DNA of 64,000 nucleotides from Tubulanus polymorphus. Its lineage: Eukaryota; Animalia; Nemertea. Shown here one piece after another: positions 1,099-50,751 of the stretch. The DNA lies in the NCBI RefSeq assembly GCF_964204645.1, contig NC_134036.1:9651859-9715858 (forward strand). Reading direction: 5' to 3'. Position 1 is the stretch's first letter, and every line of letters starts with the position of its first letter. A program made the position numbers and the translations under genes. The notes under the pieces are model-generated. The model worked only from the letters and a program-made list of their open reading frames with translations. It was not told the origin of the DNA and ran no database searches.

Positions 1099-3477
1099 CG
1101 GTTCCTGAACTTCGCTGAAAAAGCTGAAACACTGAAAAGCTGAAACGCTGAAATAAAAACGCTGAAATTTCAGGGAATTTCCGAAAAACGCCGAAATTTC
1201 AGGGAATTCCCGAAAAACGCTGAAATCGTGCTAGGTACCGACAATACACGTTTTGAAATTTTTTCCGGGCCGGTGTCCGCTGACGAGTCCTGAACCGTGT
1301 TTTATGCTCTACCTTCGGTTACAGAGACATGCCTTAAGGTCGTCGTCATGATCGACTTGATCGATTGCGGATTGCGTGGATTGTTAGATGTGTTTTTTGC
1401 CATAGTTTTATGTGCATATACCGGTACGATCTAACAATGAAGTTATCACTTCATTTGAATAAATTCTTAATCACAGTAATATTAATTCACAATATTTTTT
1501 CTTATGTTTGGTGATTTCTTGCAACTTATCATTGCCAAGTCTCATACAAGTAGTAGCTGAATGAAAGTACAGTTAGGCTGAACCTGATAACCCAAATTAA
1601 GTGCTAGCATGGAACTAATGATTATTTTGATTCTATTTTCGGTGTCATTGAAATTCGTTAAGAAAGGTTCAACCGTCATAGTATACTGTACTTAGCATTG
1701 CTACAATTGGGTGCCATATTTCTACAATTTCTACAAGGAGGAAGGAATCTTTAAGTGTCTTTGTTCCCGGGTAGGGTACGGGGTAAAACCTGGTTCACTT
1801 TCTCTTTCGACTTGCCGGAGACTACTATCTGCAATGTATTGCATGCTTTGATGTGTCTGGCCTATAGGAGTCGAACGATATTTCTTCCCCATACACAGAC
1901 TTGGCTTTAGTGTAGATGAAGGCTAGGCACTGCACATTGTGGATTGACTGGAACTCTTAACTCACAAAATTAAACGAGTCAACAAGAAAGATCCAATAAT
2001 TGGACATTTGTCTAACTATATTATTTAACAGCTTGAAATAAAACATAACACATTCTGCAAGAGTATACGAAGGAAATCAGTTCTTACATTATATCAGAAT
2101 CAATAGTTCGCTTAACTCTGGCTAGAATTCTGGTTCCATTGCTTCATATTCTAATGAAATCCACTAGTATACCTTAGAATATCGCTTAGCTTAAGACTAA
2201 AAATTTGGTACCAGGAAACAGGGAAGAAAAGTGGGTGTACTGTACATCCGCAATTGACTTATTTCTCTCAGGTTGAATCAAGTTATTATTGAAATAGCAT
2301 TCGAATAGCCATTTTATTTTTTTAAAAATTGTGTCGTTCAGCTATCCTGCTGCAAATTTCGCAGTTGAAGTTTACTGGTGCCATCTGATTTCTCAGTATC
2401 TCAAAAAATTTGCACATTCTAAGCCTGAATCTAAAAATAGAAAAAGGTGCATTTTAGTCGGATATAAAAGAATAGTGGCTAATGCACCCTGGACTATATA
2501 GCCCATGGGGTGGGCCTAGTTTGAAAGCACTGAGGTCCGAGAGAACAGCACTTAGTAAATAAATACTGAAATTAAACTTACAAAACACCCAGTACTTGAG
2601 ATGATGTACTTGACAAGAAATGTCACCAGCTAAGCAAATCAACTTTGTCTATGACTCCTCCTTTAATAGATTCAGTAGTAGTCTAAAAATAAGAATCGGT
2701 ACATTTTTCTAACAGTTGGTATGTCATTTCTTCAAAAAAACTAATTATTATCACGCCACAGCAAATAAATTATTCACAGTTGTTGAATGGTTAGCCCGAT
2801 TTAGATTAATTGGTTGACGCTAATCAGTATGACCCATACGTAGGGGCCTACTGCATGCCATTGGCGTCAATCCATTCCATTCCATTCCACAGTGAATTAA
2901 AAAGAAATTTAGTTAGATCCCTTTTGTACAAAAGCTGCATCATTTATATAACTAGCTGTCAAATTTAATTTACCTCCTTCAGAGAATACCATAGTGACAT
3001 AGTCCGTCGCCCATCAACGTGTTGACAAAAGAAAAGTTGCTGCATGTTTTATACATGAACGTTCAAATAAGATATTTTGCGTCTTGCAGGGAATATTGAG
3101 CATAGTGTTAAAGTTGGCTTGCACGGTTTGTGAATGGGTTTTCCTCATTATGCTGCCTGTATGCATTAAAAATCCGGATTTCAAGCGAATTAATTTGTCC
3201 AACAAGTGGCCCTCTAGAAGTATACTCCACACATACTGTCCATGCATGTCTCTGTAACCGAAGGTAGAGACTAAAACACGGTTCAGGACTCGGCAGTGGA
3301 CACCGGCCCGGAAAATATTTCAAAACGTGTATTGTTGGTACCTAGCACGATTTCAGCGTTTTTTGGGAATTCCCTGAAATTTCGGCGTTTTTCGGAAATT
3401 CCCTGAAATTTCAGCGTTTTTATTTCAGCGTTTCAGCGTTTCAGTGATTCAGCTTTTTCAGCGAAGTTCAGGAACCG
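1099..3477. mobile_element. Non-autonomous MULE (Mutator-like) DNA transposon
   Basis: ~235-bp TIRs (1099-1332 and 3244-3477, CGGTTCCTGAAC.../...GTTCAGGAACCG) with internal GCTGAAA subrepeats. Perfect 9-bp TSD GTACTATGA at 1090-1098 and 3478-3486. No transposase inside. Confidence 0.9.
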
Positions 3478-4745: not shown

Positions 4746-5745
4746 ACAGCATACATTTCTCTTACAGGGTAAAATACATATTGAACACTAAACCTCGCCA
4801 CATACATAGCCAAGTTTAGTCTATTCGGTGCAAACTTTTATCAATCTGCATAATGATTACCAGCTCCGATAATGCCATTATGAAATTACCCTGTTCCCTA
4901 GATAGCACTTATGCATCGCAAATTGAAAGATGGTTGTTACTAAAATTGTTGAATATTGCTATAACTTAACTCCTTGGATTTAAATGCTTTTTGATTATCT
5001 TTGTAGAAGACTGAACCTCCTACTATTCGTAAGAAAGATTGTTCTCCATGCCGTAGAAGTTGAGGTAGACGGCTATATTGCATTCCTCACCAGTGCTTCA
5101 GATAATCAAGATTGCGACGATTTCACGTCAGTCAAAATGTATAAAAAGGACCTTGCCAAGTACCTACAACAACCAACAATTCAGTCATCTGATATCGTGC
5201 CAATTCTACTACTTACCTTAAGAGTGGCAATAAAAGGTTGTACTGCAGAGCCAATTGCTGCCTCATGCAAGCAGGATACCGCCAAATCTTGTACCTCTAA
5301 TGATGCCAAGTCAGCATCAGATATAAAAAAAACAACTAAATCTTCAACTCGATCTGAATCTCTTGCTTCAACTGCATTTCCAGATGACCCACCAAGGAAA
5401 AACTTATTCCAAAAAACTGTCAAAAAAGCTCTTGATTGGGTTGAATAGTAAGAGAAGTCATAATTTCATAGCATGAGGCAGCATTGGATGAAGCTCTTAG
5501 TTCACATCATTAAAACATTCAACACCCCAATCGTAGGTAAAATTGTTATGTTTGACATATGCTTGTGTCATTAATTGCATTTTTTTAAACATTTTGTTGT
5601 CTTAAAGCAAATCGGGTCATATAAGCGACCAATTTTAAACTACGCCAATGTGATTAAAAGTTTTCTGTGAATCTACTAAAATCAGTATTTTTCACTCGAC
5701 CTACAGTAATTTTTGCCATGCTTATTATTATGTTATAATTCTAAA

Positions 5746-5890
5746 TTTTGTGGTTACAAAATGTGTCCTAGCAGACACAAATATTTCAGTTATGTGTATA
5801 AGTGGCACTGATGTATCTTATTTTATGGTTACAAAATGTGTCCTAGCAGACACAAATATTTCGGGTATGTGTATGAGTGGCACTGATCTC
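5746..5890. repeat. Tandem duplication, ~75-bp unit x2
   Basis: tggttacaaaatgtgtcctagcagacacaaatatttc...gtggcactgat occurs twice. Confidence 0.85.
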
Positions 5891-6929
5891 TTATTTTGTA
5901 TTATATTTCCTAATCATTTTTTCGAATATTTTCATCTTGACAAATTCTGAACCTTTTCGAACTTCATCCAGTTTTCATATGCTGCTTTCATTCTTCAGTC
6001 TGCTGTGTCATCTCTATATTATTCAAATGGACTAAAACGCCATTTATTCCTTTTCTACATGTACTCAACTAAATAACTCCAATAGTTGTCATGTAGTTCA
6101 TGGTACTATGATTTTTAGGGAAAGAAAACATTTACTATTATTGCATTTACCTTGACGCATGATTTATACATCATAAGTTAGATACTTGTAATTTGCTGCA
6201 CTTTAAGGCCCAGACACGCTGGGCGATTTCGCCGGTAAAATTGCCCACTATGTCCAGGCCTTTACTCGATTGTTAAGTTTTATGCAGTTTCATTTTTATA
6301 TAGAGATGTTTGTAAGATAACAAACTAATAAATCTAAAATATCTACAAAAGATCACCTTTCTTTTCTTAAGTTCCTTCTAGTCAAACATTCTAAGAAGTA
6401 CCACTTCTTATCCTGTCATTCTGTTTTTAAGAGGACTTTGTTCCCTATCAGGGGCCATTCATTAAATATGTCTGCATCTAGCAGCTGAAGGAGAGAAATT
6501 TGTTAATTGGAGGTTTCATAAAATAACCCAAATCTTCCTATGCACATGTACTAACCTAACCTAAAACATGTACTAACCTAAAAACTTCATAGATGGCGCT
6601 CAATGTTGCACTTCTTTTATAATTTGAGAAACAAAATGAATTTGAATTTCGTAAATGTGGTAACAGTCTGCTAGCAATAACTTGCCTCCATTTGTGTAAT
6701 TTTCGAAGTCTAGCCAGTTGTGTCAAATCTATTACATAAGCTAAATACAAACGAACGTCCTGTTTTAAAGTTTCTTTCTAGTTTACTCATTTGAACGAGA
6801 CCTTCATTCATTTTGCAGGATGCAGGAGAGGCTAGTCCTATGTCATCCAACCTGTCTGAGTCAAATTAAATGCGATATATCATGGCCTGATTATTTTACT
6901 AATATGTTTTAATTCATTCCACTTTATCA

Positions 6930-11325: not shown

Positions 11326-12401
11326 CAACTTCTGGCTGGTGCTAAAACTCTATCTGGCTGGTGCCCTAGCTACTGTCGTAGCTATCTTGTGTAAATAGTA
11401 TTGTTTGCTTCTCGTGGATGACAATCTAGATGACAACTTCTCTTATAACTACTGTTGAGGAACCGATTATAATCAAATGCTTCTTGATGATGGGCGCCGA
11501 TGAGCGAATTTGAATGAAACAACTCCCCTTTTCTAAAGAAGAAAAATAAGTTACTATTGTGACTTTTGTATGGGCAACTTAGCACGACAGCGATTAACAC
11601 ACGGACCACCGAAGGAGAATATTTGATATAACGGCGTTATGTTTTCTATCCAAAGTCAGGCATTCATTTCGTTCAATAATCACACAATTTCTCCCGTTCA
11701 AAGCGTTACAAATTAGTCCAATCTATTCTTCATAGCATTAGATTAAAATGTCCGTCGTTTAAATTGTAGAAGTACTTAGATTGTATTTCGTTACTAGACA
11801 GTATGATATTTAACACATTATCAATCATAAATCACTCGCTATCAACAACGTATGTTATGTACATGTAATGTACGTACAGTCCACCTTCGTTTATGTTCCG
11901 AATGCCGTGTTATATATAGGAACCGAAACCGAACACTATGTATAAATGAATCGCTCATTAATTTTGCATGAATTACCCCCTTCTCTCTCCCCATTTATCA
12001 CCCTCCACCCCCTCTCTCTCCCTTCTCATGTCTGGGCAAGCAAATTCAGCGTCACTGAGAGTAATAGGAAAAGTAGGCTTTCATACCAGAGGTCGTGAGG
12101 TCGAGACACCCCTCATCACCACAAGTAATTTTTTCCCCTAATAAATGGCAGATAGAAAAGCATTCTTAGCAACAATTAATAACAGAATTAAAACAGCAAA
12201 AAACAATTTGAAATAAAAAAGTTAGTTGACGTTACAAAAGAAATTGAACACAAAATATTGAAATTAGAAAAGATGAAAACTAAATATGGAGAGAAAGTAT
12301 CAGCAAATTAAGAAATAAAAATAAGTTTAGAAAAATTAATTTTTTTTTGCTTTTTCCAAAAATAAACAAACTTTTAAGCGCTAATAAAATGATAAAATTG
12401 T

Positions 12402-12800
12402 TCAATATTAAAAGTGTGAGCAAAGTGTGAGTAAAAAAAGTTCGATTTTCAATATTAAAAGTGTGAGTAAAATAAGTTAGATTTTCAATATTAAAAGTGT
12501 GAGTAAAGTGTGAGTAAAATAAGTTAGATTTTCAATGTTAAAAGTGTGTGTAAAGAGTGAGTAAAATAAGCTAGATTTTCAATATTAAAAGTGTGAGTAA
12601 AGTGTGAGTAAAATAAGTTAGATTTTCAATATTAAAAGTGTGAGTAAAGTGTGAGTAAAATAAGTTAGATTTTCAATGTTAAAAGTGTGTGTAAAGTGTG
12701 AGTAAAATAAGCTAGATTTTCAATATTAAAAGTGTGAGTAAAGTGTGAGTAAAATAAGTAAGATTTTCAATATTAAAAGTGTGAGTAAAGTGTGAGTAAA
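12402..12800. repeat. Minisatellite, ~47-bp unit (gattttcaatattaaaagtgtgagtaaagtgtgagtaaaataagtta), about 8 copies
   Basis: Directly visible tandem array. Confidence 0.9.
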
Positions 12801-12815
12801 AATTTTGCTATATAA

Positions 12816-13513
12816 ATGAAAGAAATGGAATTTAAAATTGAAATAAAAGAATTTAATGAATTATTTTCACTATTTAAAATTAAAAATTGTATCTCAGCAA
12901 AAAATCTAGTGTATGGAAGACGATATAAAATTGATAATATTACTGTAATTAATCAAATATTATTAAATGAAACATATTTAATTACCGATCTAATAGATAC
13001 TTTAGATAATGGTGCCAAAAATCCTAAAATATTTAATACAGTTTTCAATTATAAAGGTTATTTAGATGAAAACATAATAAATATTCTTAAATTTCCTTTT
13101 AATGAAAGAGAAAGTGATATAATACTTTCAAAAGGTAATGATAGGATAGACTTAAGAATTGAAAAACGACAATTATATTATTGTAATTTTGATAATAAAC
13201 AAATTATTTATAATGAAAATACATCAAATATTGAAATTCAATGTGATTTAGAAAAAACTATAATTCTTTTAAAGATATTGCAATTCAATGTGATTTAGAA
13301 AACAATAATTCTTTTAAAGATATTGCAATTCAGTGTGATTTAGAAAATAGTAAATCTTTTAAAGATATTGCAATTCAATGTGATTTAGAAAATGAATTCA
13401 AAAGATTTAATCCTAATGAAAAAATTCATTGTTATTGCGGAGGTAAATATTCAAAATCACAAAAATCAAAGCATTATCAAACAAGTAAACATAAAAACTG
13501 GTGTAAAGAGTAA
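12816..13513 (+). pseudogene. Polinton-like hypothetical protein whose C-terminal zinc finger is detached by a ~44-bp tandem triplication
   Basis: ORF 12816-13298. The unit attcaatgtgatttagaaaa...aaagatattgca repeats at ~13237-13392. Downstream reads NEFKRFNPNEKIHCYCGGKYSKSQKSKHYQTSKHKNWCKE* (CxC...H...H finger). Confidence 0.55.
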
Positions 13514-13584
13514 CAATTCTACATTAAAAATGAATTAAATATTCAAATAATTATTGAATTAAGTTAAATGATTTAAATATCTAA

Positions 13585-14412
13585 TAGACTGTTAAAATGA
13601 TAATTTGTCAGACTGTTAAATCATAAATTGTTAGAATGGTAAAATGTTAAATTGTTAGACTGTTAAAATGTTTGACTGTTGAAATGATAAATTGTTTGAC
13701 AGTTGAAATATTAGATTGTTAGACTGTTGAAATGTTAAATTGTTAGACTGTTAAAATGATAAATTGTTTGACTGTTAAAATGATAAATTGTTTGACAGTT
13801 GAAATGATAAATTGTTTGACTGTTGAAATGTTAAATTGTTTGACAGTTGAAATGATAAATTGTTTGACAGTTGAAATGTTACATTGTTAGACTGTTAAAA
13901 TGATAAATTGTTTGACTGTTAAAATGATAAATTGTTTGACAGTTGAAATGATAAATTGTTTGACTGCTGAAATGTTAAATTGCTAGACTGTTGAAATATT
14001 AAATTGTTAGACTGTTGAAATGTTAAATTGTTAGACTTAAAATGATAAATTGTTTGACTGTTGAAATGTGAAATTGTTAGACTGTTAAAATGTTAAATTG
14101 TTAGACTGTTGAAATGATAAATTGTTTGACAATTGAAATGTTAGATTGTTAGACTGTTAAAATGTTAAATTGTTAGACTGTTGAAATGATAAATTTTTTG
14201 ACTGTTGAAATGTTAAATTGTTAGACTGTTAAAATGTTAAATTGTTAGACTGTTAAAATGATAAATTGTTTGACAGTTGAAATGTTAAATTGTTAGACTG
14301 TTAAATTGTTAGACTGTTAAAATGCTAAATTGTTCGACTGTTAAAATGATAAATTGTTTGACTGTTGAAATGTTAAATTGTTAGACTGTTGAAATGTTAA
14401 ATTGTTTGGCTG
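13585..14412. repeat. Minisatellite, ~24-bp unit (aaattgttagactgttaaaatgtt), more than 30 copies
   Basis: Directly visible tandem array with variant units. Confidence 0.92.
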
Positions 14413-14531
14413 TAAATTTAATTGTTATTTGATTTAATCATTTAAAAGTTTAATATTTTAAAAATGATTATAAAACATTTAATAAAAAACTAGCAAATAT
14501 TTATTAATTTTCTAATTTCTTTCTTAAATAA

Positions 14532-14762
14532 ATGGATGGTTTCATTCCAACTGGGAAAAGTGATTTGAAACATTATCTTGTAGCAGGAGGATTAATATCG
14601 GCTGCGCTTTATTTATACTATGAGAATATTAGTAAGGATTTGATGAAAGAAAATATGAAGTTGAGCAAGAAATTAAAGAAGTTAAATACTAAAAACGGAA
14701 ATAATCATAAAAACGGTAATAATCACAAGAAAGTTGTTGAATCAGATAAAGAAGGGAATTAA
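14532..14762 (+). CDS. Small membrane protein (TM helix plus basic tail), Polinton-like
   Basis: Starts in ATAAATG; hydrophobic segment YLVAGGLISAALYLYY. Confidence 0.45.
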   Translation: MDGFIPTGKSDLKHYLVAGGLISAALYLYYENISKDLMKENMKLSKKLKKLNTKNGNNHKNGNNHKKVVESDKEGN

Positions 14763-15069
14763 TCTAATAAAATCTTTTTCTAATGAAATGAATGAAAATA
14801 TATTAAATTTGTTAAATCTTATTTACAGAAATCAAGAGAAAATGAAATTAAGTATGATGATTTCAGGGTTACTTTCCTTTTCAGTTTATAGTTTGAAACA
14901 ATTGTTTCATTTTTATGATGATTGTAAAATAAAATATATTGAATTGAAAAATAATATCAATTACATTTCAGATAGAATGAATAATATTAAAAGATGTGAA
15001 ATTTGGAGTAAAAAATACAAGACGGAAAAAGGATTTAGAAATCATAAATTCAGGCATAAATTAGAATGA
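14734..15069 (+). CDS. Hypothetical protein with a hydrophobic segment and a degenerate C2H2 finger
   Basis: C-terminus CEIWSKKYKTEKGFRNHKFRH resembles CxxC...H...H with one Cys lost. The start codon is uncertain. Confidence 0.35.
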   Translation: MLNQIKKGINLIKSFSNEMNENILNLLNLIYRNQEKMKLSMMISGLLSFSVYSLKQLFHFYDDCKIKYIELKNNINYISDRMNNIKRCEIWSKKYKTEKGFRNHKFRHKLE

Positions 15070-15211
15070 TTAAATGAAAAATCAAAGTAAAGGAATGAAA
15101 AATCAAAGTAAGAAAATCTCATTTATTGTGTAAAATTGAAATAATTTGAACTACAACTAAAATTAAACTAAAATAGACAACTTTGTTAATCTAATGAATT
15201 TTTAGTTATAT

Positions 15212-15353
15212 TTTTGTTGAATTGTAATTAAAGTTAGTTGCAACTATCTTCAACTAGAATTTAACTAGAATTGAATGAAAAATAAAAAAGATTAACAGGC
15301 CAGTTAATTTAGTGAAGATAGTTGCAACTAACTTTAATTACAATTCAACAAAA
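15212..15353. repeat. Perfect 41-bp inverted repeat with a 60-bp spacer
   Basis: 15212-15252 ttttgttgaattgtaattaaagttagttgcaactatcttca is the exact reverse complement of 15313-15353. Confidence 0.9.
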
Positions 15354-17935
15354 TTCCATACATAAGCTATTTAATTATAATATATGCCATTGGAGGGATC
15401 AATATATTTGATACATCCAAGCCGGTTTTTATGAATTGAGCCAATTTGACCGTCGGGTTTTTCAAAATAGCGAGAGTAATAAAGGTATTCAAAGAAGAAT
15501 AGTTTAATGGGGTCCGTCAAGTAAAGTACAATAAATGGGATTCATTGAACATTTAAACACAGGTAAAATTGGCCTTTAAATATTGCCAAGAACGAGATGA
15601 AGATGCATAGATATGTGGTGGAAACTGCTATGGATTGATATTAATATTACAGCAATCAATGATATATGAATATTATGTTGATTAATAACTAAATCTGCAT
15701 GAGATATCGAGATTTCTCGCGTCTTCGGTGTACTTTATTCTAAACAGCTGATGCCGAACCCGAATGAACAGATTCATTTCACGCTCATTGATTGTAAATT
15801 ATTTACCAATTATCCAAGCTCAAATATCCCAGCGTTCCCTGTTTGTCATAAAGAGTTTTTTTTTCGTAAACATATAGAAAGAAGCAATTGACTTTAAATA
15901 CGCTTGTTTTAAATTGTAGGTAACGCAACATAAGATCTGTTATAATCTATGAAACAATATACCATATTGTGTAAAATGTCATTTAACCAAAAAACCATAC
16001 GGTATACAAAATTCTCATTAATGCACATTTAATAATAATTCCATGTCTATCCATAATTACCATCCCATCCGTCACTTACTTGAGGTTTCGTCACCACTGC
16101 TGATGCTATTATGATGGATCGTCAGAGTTTGAATGCAAATATGAATATATATAGAACTGACGTCGATAATGTTTGCACATCTTTTCCTCACACTATTTGT
16201 TTATATCTTCCTGATGATGACATTCCTGTTCAAATTTTAGGTAACTCGAAACCAAATTTCAACAAGCGATTTATTATGGAATGCGTTCAATATATGCATA
16301 TTATAGTTGGGGAGCTAGCTTGCATTTACACTATTCAGCCCAAAAGGTTCACCTACAGCAATTGATGAGACGATAATAGGTGCGAGTGAATGTAAGGCAC
16401 ATCTTAAGTTGTGCATCATCAGAGGAAGGCCCTGTTAGTCCCCCTCCCCAAAAAGAGAAATATCAAAAAGCACATTTATATTGGAGATGTGTGTCCAAAA
16501 GGCAAACTTACTGGGAAGTGTCCGTACCAATTCAGTAGTAATATATTTCACTCCTAAGATTTTCACTCTACAATTTTATTTTCAGCATTAAGCGAGATAT
16601 ATAGGGGGTAGATTTAGGATTTGTTCTGAGCATTGAACCCAAGCAAATTTCTTTTGTTCATTAAACTCACAACCATTCACATTGAATCAATGTAGGACCC
16701 AACATTCTTCAGAGAGTTAAGAGTTAATGCAACCGTCAATCGCAACTCTATACCCGTCCTCCACAGTCAATCAACTCTCAATTGTGTCCTATCGCCCAGC
16801 AATCGACAGCATATTACCCAGATTCAACGACATTAAACCCAGAAATCGACAGAATTTCAAGAACCCCAAGGGTCCAACGCTAGGTAATTGGTGGAAATAT
16901 CCATCGCCAGGAAATAATTGTTTTAATTTCTCTGTAATTTGCCGGGATCGACATCATATCACCACCGGATGGCACAATAAACCATTAAGTAATTCCGATT
17001 AGTGGGCGTTCTTAGCGCTACCCGGCCACACCCTTCAAGAAGCTGATTACTGCTAACTATCGACGAATTCTAACCAACTTTAGAGCAACTGACCCCCGGT
17101 GCGTCGATACGCTCAACAAAGAAACATAGATTAAAATTGTCCTGTTTTTATCTGTCAATAAAACCAGTTTCACAATATTGAGGGTTTATATGGTTTCAAT
17201 TAAGGACCCATTTCTACAGTTGTTTCGTTCCACATGTCTCTGATGCAAACAGTTTGACTTTTAATCCAGTTCCTCCGTTTTGTCGGTTTAACTCTTAAAT
17301 CACAGCTATTAGGAACTAATTTGACTTTGCATCCAGTCCCAGACATGTTTAGGTTTTTCTGACATGAGAAGGAAAACGTTAATTAGTCGAATGATATCGG
17401 GTGCTGAATTTTCAGCAACATATTCCAGACGAAAAAGTTTCGTATTTCACCCGTTTCCACTCGGGATTCAAGTACTGAAATTTACACCTGTTATGTTAAG
17501 AGCATTGAATAGAAAATCAAATAGTATATTTAATGTATGAAGTGCAAAATTAATGGGCGAATTTTCAGCATAAAGGTTCCTATACTTAATGCAGCACCGA
17601 ACTTTAACTATACGGCAAACCGTTAGTAGATAACGTACATAGTGTGAAACAAAGTGGCCGATGACCATACCGTGTAGTTTAGTAAGAGATTTTAAGAAAT
17701 TACTCCCCGCTAAGCTATTTTTATCGTTGACGTTCCCGGGTGAAAAACAAATATCGCCATCCATCGATTCGATAAACCCGGAAGTAAGAGTAAACGTCAA
17801 TATCGAGAAACTAACCCTTCGTACTTCTCTAATATTTGTCTCGAGCTCAAATATGAACTAATTGAAGGGCTCAAGTCCGATATACGTCAAAATAGAGCGC
17901 TATGCGTAAAGTCAATTGAGTAAATCGGTTGTTTA

Positions 17936-33898: not shown

Positions 33899-34890
33899 TC
33901 AAACAAGCCTTTTACACTTTTTACAATGTCGAGTGTTATCTTGACTGATGTAAAAGCCACCACACTCGCATTTTCGTTTCGTTGCTTCGGATTTTGGTGG
34001 TTTTGTCGCGTAAAGACCTTGATTGATGAATAGATATTTAGTTCGCAGAACTTGATCACGGACTGTACAGTAGATTCTGTTGTCTCTGTTCACGCTTGCG
34101 TGTTTACCTTCAAGTCATTGCTCACCGAAGAGCCCCAGAGAACCCCACATATCAACAAAATCAGGAGCGTGGTAAATAAGTATATGGAGTTTTGGCGTGA
34201 TAGTGGAACTAGGAAATGCGTCGGTGTAAAATCGTCCGAAATCATGACACAGTTTACGGAATAAGGACTTTTCATCTGCTGTGAGAAATCTACATGCCGT
34301 GTATAGCGCATATAAGTTACTAAGTCTCTCGAATAGCTCGAGAAATTTCGTGTAATCATCATCAGCATGACCTGAGAGAACACTACATAGTTTCTGTGGA
34401 TTGTTGGATTTGTCATCATTTTTGAGCATTTTATTTATATAGTTTCCAACAATGCAACCACCATAGTACGCTTGCCGATCAATACCTATTTCGGCAAGAA
34501 TTTCATTTAGCCGTTTTGTAACCGGCCCCATTGATGAATTAACAACTTTGAATATTTCCTGTAATTGGTTTTGAGCTTCAGACAATCTCGATTTTAGATC
34601 AGCTAACTCAGATTTCTTTTCCGATATTTCTTGAATTTTCAGCTTGATAATATTATCCGCTGACATAGTTTTCCCCGTACAACATTCCATACATTTGAAA
34701 TTAGCTGTAGGTCCAAATATACATTGCTTGTGATAGGGGGAATCGCAATCAATGCACTCAACAAAATCATTTTGTTTGGCATTCGGAATGTTTCTAATCA
34801 AACAAATCTTTGCTGAACAACTAATAACACAACGACCCTTTTTTGGATTGTTTTAGAAGGTCAACAGTTTGATTAAGAGTGACAATCATT
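33899..34890 (-). pseudogene. Second, diverged RAG1/Transib-related transposase (copy B); C-terminal part only, cut off at the Polinton junction
   Basis: CSAKIC..VECIDCDSPYHKQC..FKCMEC, EIGIDRQAYYGGCIVGNY, ITPKLHILIYH, LFGEQ*LEGKHASVN and KCECGGFY..HCKKC are all colinear with copy A. One in-frame TGA. Confidence 0.85.
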
Positions 34891-34995
34891 TCCTTGTACT
34901 ATATTTTTTATTAAAATTGATTTTAGAAGTTCCATGATTTAAATGTTATTCATATATGTGAATATTTTAAGAGTAATAGGGATAATAGGCTTTCG

Positions 34996-35595
34996 TATCA
35001 ATTTTACTATAACATATTACAACCCCATTTTGGAGAAAAAAATATAGAAATATTATATCTAGATACTGACAGTTATATATTAAAGATAAAAAGTGATAAT
35101 ATAAATGATGATTTAAAAATATTAAATCATCATTTTGATTTCAGCAATTATCCCAAAGATCATGAACTATTTAGCAATGATAATAAAAAAGTTCCTGGGA
35201 AGTTTAAGGATGAATTAGGTGGTGAAGAAATGATAGAGTTCATTGGTATTAGATCTAAAATGTATAGTTATAAAACTAAAGAACATGAAGCTAAAAAGTT
35301 AAAAGGAATAACCAAAAGTGTAGTAGAAAAGAATATTCATTTCAAAGATTACATCAATTGTATATTTAATGAAGAAGTTAAAAAACATAAGATGAAATGT
35401 TTAAGATCTGAAGATCATGAAATATTTATTGAAGAAATTGAAAAGATAAGTCTAAACCCATTTGATGATAAAAGATATATTTTAGATGATGGAATCCACA
35501 CAGTCGCCTATGGTTGCAATTTAGATGAATATATAAAATTCAAAAGAGAAGAAACAAAAGAAAATGAAATTATGAAAAGGATTCTAACGTGTTAA
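34996..35595 (+). pseudogene. Protein-primed family B DNA polymerase, C-terminal third only
   Basis: YQFYYNILQPHFG..IEILYLDTDSY..FDFSNYPKDH.LFS..NKKVPGKFKDE..EFIGIRSKMYSY..KKLKGI..KISLNPFDDKRY. Confidence 0.93.
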
Positions 35596-41144: not shown

Positions 41145-42392
41145 ATGAGTGGGAGTTATATAAGTCCTTCTAAGATTTCTAGAATATCTAACGCTATTAA
41201 AGCAGAAAGATCACATCATATAATTACTCATAACCCTTCAAATATTAATCCTGATGAAACTTTATACGTTAGAATCCCTCGATTAACACAAAATACTTTT
41301 TATGTTCCAAATAGTATTTATTTATCAGCTGATATAAAAGTAATCGGTAATAATAATAATTATGTCGTTGATAATGTTGGAAGATATTTGATTAAAAAGT
41401 TAACAATAAAGATTGGTCCAGAAACAGTTTTCTCATTAGATGATTATAATTTATTTATGCATTATAAAGATTTATGGTTAACTAAAGAAAACAGAAATAA
41501 TATGATATTTCAAGGAATTCAATCAGAAAACCAAAATAAATTAAGATCAGAAGCTAATAGCGCAATATTAACAAATGATGTAGATAAATTGATAAAAAGT
41601 ATATATGGAAGCAAATATAAAATTCCATTAGACTTTGAATTGATAAATAATAATGCGCCTTTATATAAATACGCAATTCAAGAAGATATTATATTTGAGA
41701 TAACATTTGCTCTTGTAAATGAAATTGTAATGTCTAGCGTTAATAAAGATATGAGTTATAAATTATCGAATATATGTTTAGAATATGATACAGTAACTGA
41801 TGAAAATATTGCTAGAACAATTCAAACTCAATACAATCAAGGATTTTCATTATTATATGATTATATTGATAAATTTAAAACTGTAACTATTAATGCAAAT
41901 GATGAAATAATAAATGAGAATATTAACTTTCCTAGAAGATCTATTAAAGGTATATTAATATTTTTTACTATTGGAACGTATACTAATGGCGCAATAAATG
42001 TTGATAATTATTATAATCCTGAAATAACAAAAGTAGAAATAACTATCGAAGGTATAGCGAATAAAGTATTTTGTCAAGGAATGAGAATGATTGATCAATG
42101 GGTAGAAATTAAAAAACATTTTATGAATGAAAAAGTAAAATCATTTGAAAATTGTAACATTAATCAAATTGACTATTATACTGGTAATAAATATGCATTA
42201 TGGTTAGATTTTAGAACAACTGAAGATAACTTATTACATGGTTCTGGAAAAAAACTACAAAACACTAAAGATGGAATACAATTATTCATGACAAAGAAAA
42301 AGGGAATCAAAAATTTTTAAATGCACATTTATATTATATCTGACGCGCAATTAAATATTGTAAATTCACAATTAGATAGTGTTATGTATTAA
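41145..42392 (+). CDS. Major capsid protein (double jelly-roll) with a premature in-frame TAA near the C-terminus
   Basis: Size, position and beta-rich pattern (HNPSNINPDETLYVRIPRL...VVDNVGR..IKKL..Y.IPLDFE..YNPEITKVEITIEG..LWLDFR..LHGSG). After TAA at 42318-42320 the frame continues MHIYIISDAQLNIVNSQLDSVMY*. Confidence 0.75.
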
Positions 42393-43581: not shown

Positions 43582-44196
43582 TTATTTTATAAATTTATAT
43601 TCATAAGGAAATTGTAATCTCAGTAATAATTTTGAACCTTTATTATTTTTTAATTTATTCATATATTCATCATGTAATTCAGTAGGTATAATTTGATTTT
43701 CTTCCAATGATTGTTGCATAGATTTTCTATCTTTGTTGTAGAATAAAACTAGAAATCTTATATTCTCTCTAAAATCTTTCACAATTGAATTATATTTCTG
43801 ATTTAAAACCCAAGTTGTTATCCCAAAATGTCTTCCAGAGAAAGCTAAATAACATAACTCACTTTCTCTAATTTTAGAATCATGTAAATTTGCGCAATCA
43901 TCAATAATAAATAATGTATTTGATCCTTTATAAATATCTAATACAATTTTTATACAATTATCTAAATTTTCTTTTACTGTTTTAGGGTCTAATATAATAA
44001 ACTTTTTTATCTTAACTATATCTCTATTATATGTTTTATTCATTTCATATGTAGGACAGAATAATATTATATTATCAAAATGATTTTTATAAATAGTTTC
44101 TAACAAGTCTAATATGAAATGTGTTTTACCACAATTTGTAACTCCAGTAACTAAGTTCAATGTATGTGGTTCAAATATAAATAAATCTTTATTCAT
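43582..44196 (-). CDS. A32/FtsK-like DNA packaging ATPase
   Basis: Walker A GVTNCGKT, Walker B FIIDD, SGRHFGIT..LNQ. Confidence 0.92.
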   Translation of the reverse strand: MNKDLFIFEPHTLNLVTGVTNCGKTHFILDLLETIYKNHFDNIILFCPTYEMNKTYNRDIVKIKKFIILDPKTVKENLDNCIKIVLDIYKGSNTLFIIDDCANLHDSKIRESELCYLAFSGRHFGITTWVLNQKYNSIVKDFRENIRFLVLFYNKDRKSMQQSLEENQIIPTELHDEYMNKLKNNKGSKLLLRLQFPYEYKFIK

Positions 44197-45277
44197 TTAT
44201 TCTTTTAATTTTACTAGATAAAATCCATTCATTAAATTTATCATCATATCCTTTATATTTCACCAAAGAATACTTTTTTCCTTTAAGAGTTTTTGTTTTC
44301 AATACTTTTTCTATTTTGTATTCTATTTCATCTGGATTTGGTACTAATGATAATTCTTGTTCATAAAAATAACCTAATATTTCTTCATCTTTTAAATCTT
44401 CTAATTTATAAACAAATGGTTTAGTTAATATTATCTTTTTAATTTTAAATATTTCTTCAGTAAAATTAGGGGTATAACCTTTATAAAATGTTTTTCGATA
44501 TTTAGAAATTCTAACGTGTTGTCCTATTTTAAATTTAGGTTCACCGAAATCGTGTGTAACAAATGCTCCATATAAATTATTCCAAACTATTTCCGAATTA
44601 TCTTCTTGTCTAGCTTGTATGGGTTTCATATTTATAGAACTATGTTTAGAATTATTATAACCTTTCACTAAATCATCTAACACATCGATATATTTATATG
44701 TTTCATTAGCGGTGAAATATTTCCACATTCTAGTTTTCAATGTTTTATTAAATCTTTCTATAACAGATGCTTTTTTATCTGAATGTGTTGAAAAATATTC
44801 TACATCGTTATCAGTTAATAGTTTTTTAAAATGTTTGTTATAAAATTCTTTACCTTCATCAAATTGTATCTTATCTGGGATAGCTTCTTTGAATATAGAT
44901 TTAAAAGCATTTGTTACTTCTATACCAGTTTTATTTTTAATCGGGATACTCCATGCGTATCTACTGAATATATCTATAACATTCAGTATCCAGAAATATC
45001 CTTTGTTATATTCTTCTAAGTTTTTCATATCAATTAAATCAGCTTGCCATTGTTGGTCAATATATGAAACCATAACTTTTCTTGTTAAATATTTTTTATC
45101 CATCTTTTTATGAATTTGATATGTGGGTTGATTTTGTAACCATGATTTTAATTCACTATATTTTATATCACTATTATCGGATTTAATTTTATTCCATAAT
45201 TCTGAAACGTTAGAATATGATACTTCACTTTCTGGGTTATAATATAAATCTCTTAAATATTGTTCTTTTTTCATCAT
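44189..45277 (-). CDS. Retroviral-like (rve, c-int) integrase with a C-terminal chromodomain; intact
   Basis: WQADLIDM (D), IDIFSRYAW, QFDEGKEF (D), ERFNKTLK (E), YNNSKHSSI; chromo-like YKIEKVLK..YSLVKYKGY...NEWI. Confidence 0.95.
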   Translation of the reverse strand: MMKKEQYLRDLYYNPESEVSYSNVSELWNKIKSDNSDIKYSELKSWLQNQPTYQIHKKMDKKYLTRKVMVSYIDQQWQADLIDMKNLEEYNKGYFWILNVIDIFSRYAWSIPIKNKTGIEVTNAFKSIFKEAIPDKIQFDEGKEFYNKHFKKLLTDNDVEYFSTHSDKKASVIERFNKTLKTRMWKYFTANETYKYIDVLDDLVKGYNNSKHSSINMKPIQARQEDNSEIVWNNLYGAFVTHDFGEPKFKIGQHVRISKYRKTFYKGYTPNFTEEIFKIKKIILTKPFVYKLEDLKDEEILGYFYEQELSLVPNPDEIEYKIEKVLKTKTLKGKKYSLVKYKGYDDKFNEWILSSKIKRINE

Positions 45278-47700: not shown

Positions 47701-48369
47701 CTAACCACTGATCAAAACCTCAGAATGCGGTTGATTATGTGAAATACTATTCCATAATTCAACAAATGTCTTTGCTTTATCCAGTTGATCTAAATATAAC
47801 TGTAAATCTAGTTTATTGGATTTAATAATGTTTTCCTTCTTTTCTAAAGGTCTTAGATTCTTCCAATTCCAAATAAGTTTTTTATTGTATTCATCATTCA
47901 TGTCAAATTTAGAAATCGGCAACACGCGATCAATATGAAAGTATTCACCATAATTATCTATATTCATTTTATCATCGAATTGATATATTATCCATGATTT
48001 GAGAAATTCATCTGAACAACCCAATAGATTAGATAGTGTTTCTGAATGTGTTTCTTTGTTGAATAATTGTGTTATTCTAGTCCTTAAGCATTGTTTCAAT
48101 CTAAAATTAAGATCTGTTTGATATCTTTCTCTCATATATTTTGTCATATAATAATTATAATGTTTTATATTATCTTCTCGATATTGTTTGGTGTATAGTT
48201 TAGCACAAGTTTTACAACAATTTTGAAAACCATCTTTGCTAATCTTACGCTTACTAAATTCTGTTATAGCTAATTTATCTAATTCACATTTAGAACACTT
48301 CTTGTAGTATATGTTTATAACGCCAGTGTTATTTGTAATATTGATAGTTTGTGGTTGTTCTGGTTCCAT
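47701..48369 (-). CDS. Zinc-ribbon plus HNH-like endonuclease of the type common in large DNA viruses (NCLDV)
   Basis: KKCSKC...F.K..CKTC, LRTRI...LLGCS..FLK.WI..QF...NYG..HIDRVLP...WNWKNLRPL..EN..KSNK. Confidence 0.7.
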   Translation of the reverse strand: MEPEQPQTINITNNTGVINIYYKKCSKCELDKLAITEFSKRKISKDGFQNCCKTCAKLYTKQYREDNIKHYNYYMTKYMRERYQTDLNFRLKQCLRTRITQLFNKETHSETLSNLLGCSDEFLKSWIIYQFDDKMNIDNYGEYFHIDRVLPISKFDMNDEYNKKLIWNWKNLRPLEKKENIIKSNKLDLQLYLDQLDKAKTFVELWNSISHNQPHSEVLISG

Positions 48370-48448
48370 TTATTATACGTATTTTTTTACTAAATTGGTT
48401 AATAATTTTAGAATCCTCTTCCATTTCTTCGACCAACGTCATCCTTTT

Positions 48449-48688
48449 TCATTCCTCGCTGCTTTTGATAAGTTCTTTCGATTCCTTGATATCAAATTCC
48501 TCAACGTATTGTTCATTATTTGGGTCATTATTCCATAATTCAATAAATTTCTTTCCCTTTGTTAACTGTTCTGAATACTCTAGTTTCAATTTATTCTCTA
48601 AATGTGTTATAGTTTTATTGTGTCTTGCTTTTTGAGACTTGTCTATATCGATATTACATGTTGGGCAGTAGTATTTATTTGCTTCCAT
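48449..48688 (-). CDS. Small zinc-finger protein
   Basis: YYCPTCNI....KARHNKTITH. The frame continues beyond the TGA, so the stop may be premature. Confidence 0.55.
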   Translation of the reverse strand: MEANKYYCPTCNIDIDKSQKARHNKTITHLENKLKLEYSEQLTKGKKFIELWNNDPNNEQYVEEFDIKESKELIKSSEE

Positions 48689-48768
48689 TTTAATACTATA
48701 TTTTTTATTAAAATTGATTTTAGAAGTTCGATGATTTAAATGTTATTCATATATGTGAATATTTTAAG

Positions 48769-48949
48769 AGTAATAGGGATAATAGGCTTTCGTATCAAAG
48801 GTTGAAGGGGCGAGTGAGTAAAAATGAAAATAATAATTTATAGTTGAATTAGGAGTGTGCGCGACTAATTCAACTGTAAATTATTATTTTCATTTTTTAC
48901 GAGCTCGACCGTTCGACCTTTGGTATGAAAGCCTATTATCCCTATTACT
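48769..48949. repeat. 181-nt imperfect terminal hairpin at the Polinton right end
   Basis: Arms of ~84 nt. The outer 23 bp are perfect (AGTAATAGGGATAATAGGCTTTC / GAAAGCCTATTATCCCTATTACT). 12-nt loop gagtgtgcgcga. Confidence 0.92.
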
Positions 48950-49872
48950 GGCGTCGTGACTGACTGACTACTTAGGCTACTGCACACCCAGCTGAATCTG
49001 GTAAGCACTTACTTCAATTATATGGTTCCTGGGCCGTTTTTGAACCGATCCCCCTTAATCCCTGCCAATTAATTTAATTTCAAACCGTCAGATTATGATA
49101 AATTAATTTTGAAACTAATGTTTTTCTGGTTGTCAGACCGTCTTAATGATCTCCTTTGGGCGAAAATAGGATGTGCTCAATGGTTTCACATGCTTTAGAA
49201 ATTCTGGGGTCCCTTAAGTAAAAAAGTCTAACGTTAGTTTAGGCTACAGCACACTAATCTGCCGTGTATTGAGCGTACGCGGCTTTGTTCACATGTGTCT
49301 AGACAAGGTGACCTCAATTCAGCAGATAAAGAGTGACATGAACTGAATCGATTTCCTTACTACCGCTGCCGGTGAACTCGGCACAAACGCGCTTGCCTGG
49401 GGTTGCCAAGGTTACCAAGGCTGGCTACAAACAAGCCGTAGCCCAGGCCTATAGGCCCTACGCCTTGATAAAAGCCAGTTAGATGGCATATGATAGGCCT
49501 ATGAGTAGGCATATATTAGGCTAACCCCAACGACGTGTATCCGGAAATGAGCGCCCTCAGTCTTCAGTAATTTCGGAAGTTTTTTTTACGGCCTCTCCGC
49601 GGTCGTGAAGGGAAATACCTATTCGGACTAGCTTAAATTTGAAAAAGGAGAGGTAGGTTGGTATTTCCTGGGAATTCCACGGAAATACGCGAAGTTCTAG
49701 GATGTAAAAAGTTTGTTTATAAACATTCATTCGCTATTGGAATACGATCGTTGATGAAATATCAGCGATTTTTGGAAACTCGCTCGCATACACATAATTT
49801 CGGAAATCGCATACCCGGTTATTCTGGCTCGTTCACGTAATTTCGGAAGTTCCGAATTTATGTATAGGCCTA

Positions 49873-50358
49873 ATGTCTATTTCAAAATGACTTGAGAGCA
49901 TATCTGGTGGCCTAGGTCAGTCAGTTTTGGTAGTACATACTTGATAGAAGTCTTATTAGGAACAGAATGCATTGGCAGCTGACCTAAAATATCATTTTTT
50001 ATTTCACTTTAAACTGTATTGAAGGATATCCAAAAAATCTGTATTGAGAGGGGTTCCTGAGAGAAAAGAGACTCCATGATTTGAAAGTTTAACAATATGT
50101 CTCCATGCCTACCAACTGAAGTTTGGTACGTAGGCATGGAAACATATTGTTAAACTTTCAAATCATGGAGTCACTTCTCTTCATTTAACCCCTTTCAGTG
50201 AAGACTTTTTGGATATCAATGGTTTCAAATGGATTAAAAACGATATTTTAAGTCGACTGCCAGTCCTTTCTGGTCCTAAAGACATCTATCCTATGTACTA
50301 CCAAAACTGAGTGAGCTAGGCCACCCGGAATGCTCTCAAGTCAGGTTGAAATAGACAT
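49873..50358. mobile_element. Fold-back palindromic element (MITE-like) flanked by TA
   Basis: ATGTCTATTTCAA...TTGAAATAGACAT. Arms stay complementary over ~240 bp to a centre near 50115-50125. Confidence 0.75.
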
Positions 50359-50751
50359 TAGTTGGTATTTGTGTGTGTTTTCTCGGTATTCTCGGTATCA
50401 TCAAACAGGCCTTTTTTCTGAGATAATTGTCGCAAAAAAGTGCATATTGAAAGCAAATGCTAATTGAATCTATCATTTTAGCCCCAGAGCCTAGGCCTAT
50501 AACCTAAGTTGATGTCATACCTCTATTAAAACATAAGATTTAATGTCATTCGCAAGATTAATTATGTTATTGTCGCCTTGGAATGAACAACCGAGAGGTG
50601 CCTGATCGCCATATTTGTTCGACTAATCTCTTTTCCATATCTGTCAAATTCCATTCAGCCTGTGGAATGTTCATGTCATATAACTGAAATTTGTAAAAAA
50701 AAGAAATCATCACATAGGCTACAAGCAGATATAAAAAAATTAACTAGGGGA

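Follow-up and report, generated by a model that had tools for sequence, protein, structure and literature searches.

An imperfect 181-nt fold-back forms the end of a multi-copy Polinton family in the nemertean Tubulanus polymorphus

The window analysed here is a stretch of 64,000 nucleotides from Tubulanus polymorphus (contig NC_134036.1, positions 9,651,859 to 9,715,858 of the forward strand), and all coordinates count from its first letter. A low-GC block from ~34.9 to 48.9 kb is the Polinton copy in this window. The block opens, on the forward strand, with the C-terminal ~197 codons of PolB (35002..35595); this copy lacks the 5' part of the gene, and the remaining piece is 79-82% identical to the ends of relatives of 1,319-1,365 aa. 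A likely major capsid protein is encoded on the same strand (41145..42320), with 420 relatives and a weak match to Pfam Capsid_N (E 0.0095, 16 bits, below the cut-off of 24). The reverse strand carries an A32-type packaging ATPase (43582..44196; Pfam Pox_A32, E 1.1e-9, 38.6 bits, cut-off 22.8), an rve integrase with a chromodomain (44189..45277; Pfam rve, E 2.4e-9, 37.8 bits, cut-off 32.6; Chromo, E 8e-5) and, just inside the TIR, an endonuclease VII/HNH-type nuclease ORF (47701..48369; PHROG 1035, E 2e-14). The hallmarks of a Polinton are thus present in the form of a protein-primed PolB gene (its C-terminal part), an rve integrase and a packaging ATPase, and the named relatives come from insects and molluscs. 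No maturation protease family was found among the 20 ORFs scanned, part of the element being missing from this copy. The same 20 ORFs include no HUH Rep/NS1 nickase; the endonuclease VII/HNH-type ORF is present.

Only a remnant of the element survives here, bounded on the left by a 105-bp piece of TIR (34897..35001, forward strand) that is identical to 48694-48798 at 104 of 105 positions and is joined straight to PolB. The piece is inverted relative to an intact left end, stops 30 nt into a hairpin arm and carries the same minority letters as the right end of the window copy. Breakage in the host driven by the palindrome, a tandem deletion or a head-to-head intermediate could each have produced it. 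Because the left end is rearranged, with a TIR piece joined directly to PolB, no TSD of the 5-8 bp expected of a Polinton can be read in the window copy, and the right-flank sequence has no match left of 34897. Just left of the remnant lies an ORF on the reverse strand (34115-34690) with no clear family in Pfam or PHROGs; its C-terminal motif is one that we take to recall Transib/RAG1-type transposases. Just inside the right end, at 48371-48719, some reads skip ~320-340 bp (72 reads, two joints) and others show a 315-bp go-back (27 reads). Palindromic repeats are also found between the convergent gene blocks of related Polintons (L002 3720-3837, L008 3163-3275 and L001 9173-9340).

The extreme right end of the element, where the forward strand has its 3' end, is an imperfect hairpin of 181 nt (48769..48949). 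It consists of an inner arm (48769..48852), which is a second, partly degenerate copy of the terminal sequence, a 12-nt loop (48853..48864) and an outer arm (48865..48949), which is the true terminal sequence. The arms form 75 Watson-Crick pairs out of 84, with five G.T pairs, four purine-purine oppositions (G.G and G.A) and one extra base, and the outermost 23 bp of the stem are perfectly paired. A hairpin of this length, with ~84-nt arms, a loop of 12 nt and 23 perfectly paired outermost bp, had been claimed in a preliminary description of the locus, and both its coordinates and its anatomy were reproduced. The same description had called several arm differences G-T compatible. That holds for the five G.T pairs of the window copy, but two of the five are not the majority state of the family: the letter giving a standard pair is carried by 79% of reads at 48792 and by 55% at 48841. 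The window contains the terminal 9-mer AGTAATAGG four times, where 0.47 occurrences would be expected.

Long fold-backs are not rare in the window, where a self-BLAST gave five self-palindromic matches at four places, the terminal hairpin among them. At 49870-50361, 0.9 kb outside the Polinton end, there is a 505-nt, 80% self-palindrome with an inner hairpin of 88-bp arms (50025-50217); it is likely to be a foldback element or a set of nested MITEs, and served here as a control. Two 234-bp inverted repeats (1099-1332 and 3244-3477, 96% identical), 1.9 kb apart and with short internal repeats, are likely to represent a TIR transposon.

Folding of the 181 nt both as single-stranded DNA and as RNA, which the preliminary description had called for, gave structures far stabler than shuffled sequence. 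The predicted DNA fold has -69.9 kcal/mol (z -19.9, equalled by 0 of 200 shuffles) and the RNA fold -118.4 (z -19.8). In the predicted fold, the 3'-terminal base is paired and the template continues beyond it. The forward strand folds better as DNA than the other strand (-69.9 versus -56.8), whereas two control fold-backs are strand-symmetric (-66.5/-68.0 and -43.0/-43.3). All nine non-standard pairs are of G type on the forward strand, whose 3' end is the terminus, and this trend is opposite to that of the neighbouring genes, which are C-rich on the same strand (skew -0.11). G-type mismatches are relatively stable in DNA. Four control inverted repeats in the window have G-type to C-type ratios of 6:6, 5:1, 7:2 and 6:1, and a sign test for polarity gives p values from 0.004 to 0.06, varying with the way in which events are counted. 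The strand polarity of the mismatches is suggestive; it was not accepted as proof of selection, since control repeats are skewed too.

Copies of the element were assessed from raw DNA reads of the same species (run X6, ~12% of the run) and from contigs of X1, X2 and X5; in the mapping, 57 of 8,565 reads fit two places, and related copies are counted repeatedly. At the terminus, 2,781 reads of X6 (2,058 and 723) leave behind 48949/48950 with an agreement of 0.33-0.35. This low agreement indicates varied flanks, which makes the final nucleotide of the outer arm the true terminus of many insertions. Read depth is ~780-1,240 inside the element and 40-80 in the flank, a contrast that puts the element at no less than ten times the copies of the flank, which is itself variable. 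The hairpin is the end structure across a multi-copy Polinton family. The preliminary description had named its absence from other family copies as grounds for rejecting the proposed reading; in the reads it is family-wide. At 48887 and 48893, 770 and 898 reads leave inward while sharing the outer arm, with agreements of 0.73 and 0.82. These are sister subfamilies with different inner stems. Stem length varies further among the joint-letter classes, of which 12 out of 33 are listed: nine of the 12 (70 reads) have shorter stems in which a similar G-rich loop is retained in the same direction with its closing pair reversed, and two (7 and 24 reads, 31 in all) are copies without the inner stem and loop.

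The two arms vary in step, and the compensatory changes that the preliminary description had proposed to look for are present. Forty of 76 variants are listed, 27 of them in the arms once 10 sub-terminal, one loop and two flank variants are excluded, and all shares are taken per column in one run, not per molecule or phased copy. Among the 12 listed inner-arm variants, seven are matched by an outer-arm variant with which a standard pair is regained. When variants were placed at random, the mean was 0.73 such matches and the highest count in 20,000 draws was five; with the registers slid, 0-3 were obtained. Three of the other listed inner-arm variants repair mismatches of the window copy and two are without a listed partner. 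Partner shares are 0.50/0.52 at 48779/48939, 0.48/0.46 at 48784/48934, 0.32/0.35 at 48793/48925 and 0.31/0.24 at 48843/48874; they differ by up to 0.26, and the two variants without a listed partner are among nine inner-arm variants at paired positions. Insertions of 3 nt are paired as well, at 48828/48879 (435 of 910 and 454 of 995 reads, or 0.48/0.46) and at 48831/48883 (90 of 981 and 118 of 1,364 reads, or 0.09/0.09). A block of mismatches at arm positions 35-49 persists between two co-varying stems.

Polintons/Mavericks carry TIRs of 100-1,500 bp at both ends. A TIR of ~375 bp (48575..48949) can be inferred here from PolB homology and a step in read depth. It would comprise the hairpin, an 80-bp spacer and first codons held in common with PolB. 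A 79-aa ORF on the reverse strand (48449..48688) matches the N-terminus of full-length PolB relatives with its first 40 residues. The window has two regions similar to those relatives, one at 34990-35589 and a second, corresponding to their first 33-56 residues, on the reverse strand at 48688-48530 (28 of 42 residues identical). The ORF starts with the zinc-finger-like N-terminus of PolB and then diverges, apparently because the TIR reaches into the start of PolB. Depth steps from 864 to 1,448 (ratio 1.67) at the inner edge of the N-terminal match, and 645 reads leave before 48575 with an agreement of 0.94. These data point to a TIR extending inward from the tip as far as the start of PolB, so that at left ends the sequence would continue into PolB from 48575. 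A TIR edge at 48734, before which 616-652 reads leave, was also considered and was rejected, PolB homology and the depth step placing the edge near 48575. As the hairpin is the outer half of the TIR, it is probably located at both ends of the element. Depth at the inner-arm junction is 0.75 of that at the terminus, where 0.5 would be expected if one end only carried the hairpin, and no class of outward-leaving reads appears between 48575 and the hairpin among the loose ends listed. An intact left end is spanned by no single read or contig of the species.

A related terminal sequence is found at 12060..12105 on the forward strand, at the start of another low-GC insert, and has no hairpin after it (the predicted fold of this region has -10.0 kcal/mol over 201 nt). 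It is identical to the outer arm at 39 of 46 positions and to the inner arm at 35 of 46. Since this terminus is closer to the outer arm and lacks the hairpin, the outer arm appears to be the conserved end and the inner arm its drifting partner. The inner arm has lost letters that are common to the outer arm and the 12060 terminus, and its use as a second internal priming site, one of the roles first suggested for it, is thus doubtful. The insert itself (12060-15400) contains tandem repeats (12385-12801 and 13585-14427) and overlapping inverted repeats (15184-15353). At the protein level it resembles neither the Polinton nor any of 254 stored proteins, and it is possibly a non-autonomous element that uses the same integrase.

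Beyond this species, exact or degenerate terminal patterns gave 0 stretches in viral_contigs and metagenome_contigs, and protein-led scans found no relatives in viral_contigs or genome_contigs. In the 23 metagenome loci with relatives the terminus is absent, apart from a single chance 9-mer in L020, and the six of them scanned for inverted repeats have no comparable hairpin at an end.

A flip-flop origin had also been suggested for the hairpin but is not supported. No flop population is visible in the diagnostic A>C changes, in the joints or in the loose ends. A full flop requires three A>C changes, and there are three A>C places in all, two of which are listed elsewhere; this leaves one unlisted place at 5% or more, so that the required changes cannot all reach that level. 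Among the 15 of 31 joints listed, none is an opposite-strand joint at the hairpin base, and among the six of 179 loose ends listed, the smallest of which has 485 reads, none has varied flanks before 48769. If the classes listed are the best supported, flop would make up less than ~17% of the ends of integrated copies (485 versus 2,781 reads).

The N-terminal part of the polymerase was approached through a PolB relative that is 81% identical (P0121), of which an N-terminal part of 315 residues was modelled with 57 sequences (mean pLDDT 83). Compared with 48,161 chains, the model matches the little-finger/PAD domains of Y-family polymerases at Z 8.1, 8.0 and 7.7 (for the best, rmsd 3.1 over 103 aligned residues) and viral OTU domains at Z 7.2 (rmsd 3.8, 108 aligned), Z values of ~7-8 being middling when taken alone. 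In BFVD it matches the PolBs of adintoviruses and MELD viruses (E 1e-16 and 2e-11), and a pairing of terminal-protein and vOTU domains in PolB is described in the accessible part of PMC11071308. A PDB sequence search with a PolB relative returned only two weak zinc-finger matches. The model suggests that terminal-protein-like and vOTU domains are kept in close PolB relatives, and thus that protein priming is retained in those relatives.

Polinton replication has so far been a matter of models; in the one given in the available text of bioRxiv 10.64898/2026.07.28.741278, two far TIRs pair and protein priming follows. A more local arrangement is the one preferred here, tentatively and with a little less than an even chance of being right: the hairpin may be a single-stranded DNA fold-back through which the displaced strand acquires a duplex origin locally, for protein priming as well as end repair. 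The covariation of the arms, and the fact that the 3'-ending strand folds better, support its being a DNA end structure. In this scheme, pPolB would start at one end and displace a strand, the 3' end of which would pair with the inner arm 100-180 nt away, not with the far TIR many kb off. The folded end would then present the terminal sequence as a duplex for the second protein-primed strand start. The fold would also shield the terminal sequence, and a trimmed 3' end could be refilled from the inner arm. As the hairpin would be copied straight through by protein priming, there would be no resolution step, no flip/flop isomers and a single orientation. Occasional arm-to-arm copying together with selection would produce the paired changes, and selection would account for the survival of the mismatched middle between the co-varying stems. 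There is a precedent in Streptomyces telomeres, where one palindromic 3' end serves both protein priming and fold-back repair (PMC5449611, in the portion available). Two points tell against such a local origin, namely the copies without an inner stem and loop and the 12060 terminus without a hairpin, and the reading of the fold as selected is weakened by template switching from arm to arm, which yields the same covariation without selection (PMC8604942, accessible part).

Self-priming, which the preliminary description had raised, is unlikely but accounts for several features of the end. The folded 3'-OH would be extended by pPolB, and a hairpin-closed or head-to-head intermediate would be resolved by a nuclease of the element without inversion. 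The same model has been proposed for elements of Halocafeteria (bioRxiv 10.64898/2026.07.28.741278, available text). A paired 3'-terminal base with the template continuing beyond it has the shape of a primer, the 3'-ending strand has the better fold, and the inverted TIR piece at 34897-35001 is arranged as a head-to-head remnant would be, although palindrome breakage in the host explains that piece equally well. No flop population is seen in the reads. Flip-only resolution exists in autonomous parvoviruses, however, and the absence of flop is therefore compatible with self-priming. The retention of terminal-protein-like and vOTU domains by close relatives of the polymerase, predicted from the model, also weighs against it.

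The candidate nuclease lies just inside the TIR, and PolB relatives have a weak Endonuclease_7 match (E 0.0002-0.01, below the cut-off), both of which would suit self-priming. In the related Polinton L002, however, the nuclease ORF is placed elsewhere (5568-6083, between the integrase and the next gene), as is typical of mobile nucleases, and the ORF at 47701-48369 is possibly such a nuclease. One nearly invariant position in an alignment with 14 relatives is changed in that ORF, which may be inactive in the window copy. HNH inserts also occur in the pPolB2 of nematodes and oomycetes, for which terminal hairpins are not mentioned in the available portion of the source (bioRxiv 10.1101/2023.08.22.554363).

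It is also doubtful, to a similar degree, that the hairpin is neutral, that is, that the terminus was duplicated as a fold-back a single time and the arms have since been kept alike by template switching with no selection on structure. Copying is the simplest way to obtain transversions and 3-nt indels in pairs, and template switching is described as homogenising arms in the accessible part of PMC8604942. The related 12060 terminus without a hairpin, the widely variable stem length and the further fold-backs in the window would all fit a neutral origin. Unselected copying should, however, erase the mismatch block at arm positions 35-49, and the direction of the loop is constant although template switching inverts spacers as well. 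The nine mismatches, moreover, are all of the stable G type on one strand.

A combined scheme, in which this lineage keeps its terminal protein and yet self-primes its second strand by 3' fold-back, with its own nuclease resolving the intermediate in a fixed orientation, has a rather low chance of being correct. If true, fold-back self-priming with a retained terminal protein would be a hybrid of adenovirus-like and rolling-hairpin replication.

Selection of the fold for integrase docking, excision, packaging or end protection, and not for priming, is improbable, even though the mismatches of vaccinia hairpins serve virion maturation and not DNA synthesis (PMC8956199, available part). The hairpin does abut the integration joint, and both an integrase and a packaging ATPase are encoded by the element. 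Retroviral-type integrases and A32 ATPases, however, work on duplex ends, and such substrates would not select strand-specific mismatches.

A structured non-coding RNA, or a precursor of small RNAs, transcribed outward across the end has very little to recommend it. The RNA fold is better on the forward strand than on the reverse (-118.4 versus -90.3) and includes five G.U pairs, but two of these are not the family majority, the adjacent genes read on the opposite strand, and the six weak Rfam matches are all far below the gathering score (the best with 32.8 of 80 bits). G.G and G.A mismatches, which suit DNA no worse than RNA, count against it too. Scarcely credible, finally, is a 181-nt MITE that inserted independently at the end of the Polinton. 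The preliminary description had named a free-standing unit with a TSD as grounds for rejecting its reading. The size is MITE-like and the ends are inverted, but the unit is not flanked by a duplication, depth is 2,550 at 48760-48769 with reads passing from the inner arm into the Polinton, and no varied-flank class precedes 48769 among the six of 179 loose ends listed, the smallest of them with 485 reads against 2,781 at the outer end.

Compared with known systems, the element is closest to Polintons/Mavericks with a pPolB2-type polymerase, the animal forms of which are also called adintoviruses. Its PolB, rve-chromo integrase, A32 ATPase and likely capsid are alike, as are the 5'-AG terminus, the TIR, probably of a few hundred bp, and the presence in relatives of terminal-protein and vOTU domains and an HNH-like insert. 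As a point of difference, the outer 181 bp of the TIR are themselves palindromic here; the terms 'hairpin' and 'palindrom' are absent from the accessible portions of PMC8502044 and bioRxiv 10.1101/2023.08.22.554363. Terminal palindromes have been described in endogenous virophages (subtypes 1, 2, 5 and 6) and PLV subtype 4 of Halocafeteria seosinensis. In the available text of that report (bioRxiv 10.64898/2026.07.28.741278), hairpin priming is proposed, accidental annealing is named as the alternative, and the palindromes, 52 nt long in subtype 5, are found preferentially with non-pPolB replication genes. As in those protist elements, the palindrome here lies inside the TIR and adjoins the insertion joint, and an rve integrase is present. 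Here, however, it is 181 nt long and imperfect, belongs to a pPolB element whose relatives appear to retain the priming domain, covaries at the level of reads and has a fixed orientation. Terminal palindromes in related elements have thus already been published, and subscription journals or Repbase notes may describe cases in animal Polintons.

The telomeres of Streptomyces (Tpg/Tap), which cap a linear replicon with protein, are a functional analogy only. There, too, the 3' strand folds on terminal palindromes, and fold-back extension repairs truncated ends (PMC5449611, in the part available). In Streptomyces the palindromes are short, several in number and closed by GNA loops; the primase is a dedicated one, and the ends are patched after initiation at internal sites. 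The Polinton, by contrast, has a B-family polymerase and, at its end, a single long stem closed by a 12-nt loop. The hairpins of parvoviruses and poxviruses resemble this end in being incompletely paired terminal fold-backs. Poxvirus ends are covalently closed. The Polinton end differs from those of both groups in that no flip/flop isomers are seen, no HUH Rep was found in the 20 ORFs scanned and both arms are laid out in the integrated state. That mismatches can matter in a terminal hairpin is reported for poxviruses in the accessible part of PMC8956199.

A conserved fold-back in the end, together with a priming domain that appears to be kept in relatives, suggests that the origin of a Polinton may be local and single-stranded. 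The 181-nt end is a short natural substrate with which protein priming and self-priming could be told apart in vitro. It also extends the terminal palindromes of protist virophages and PLVs to a pPolB element of an animal host, and runs against the proposed link of such palindromes with non-pPolB replication.
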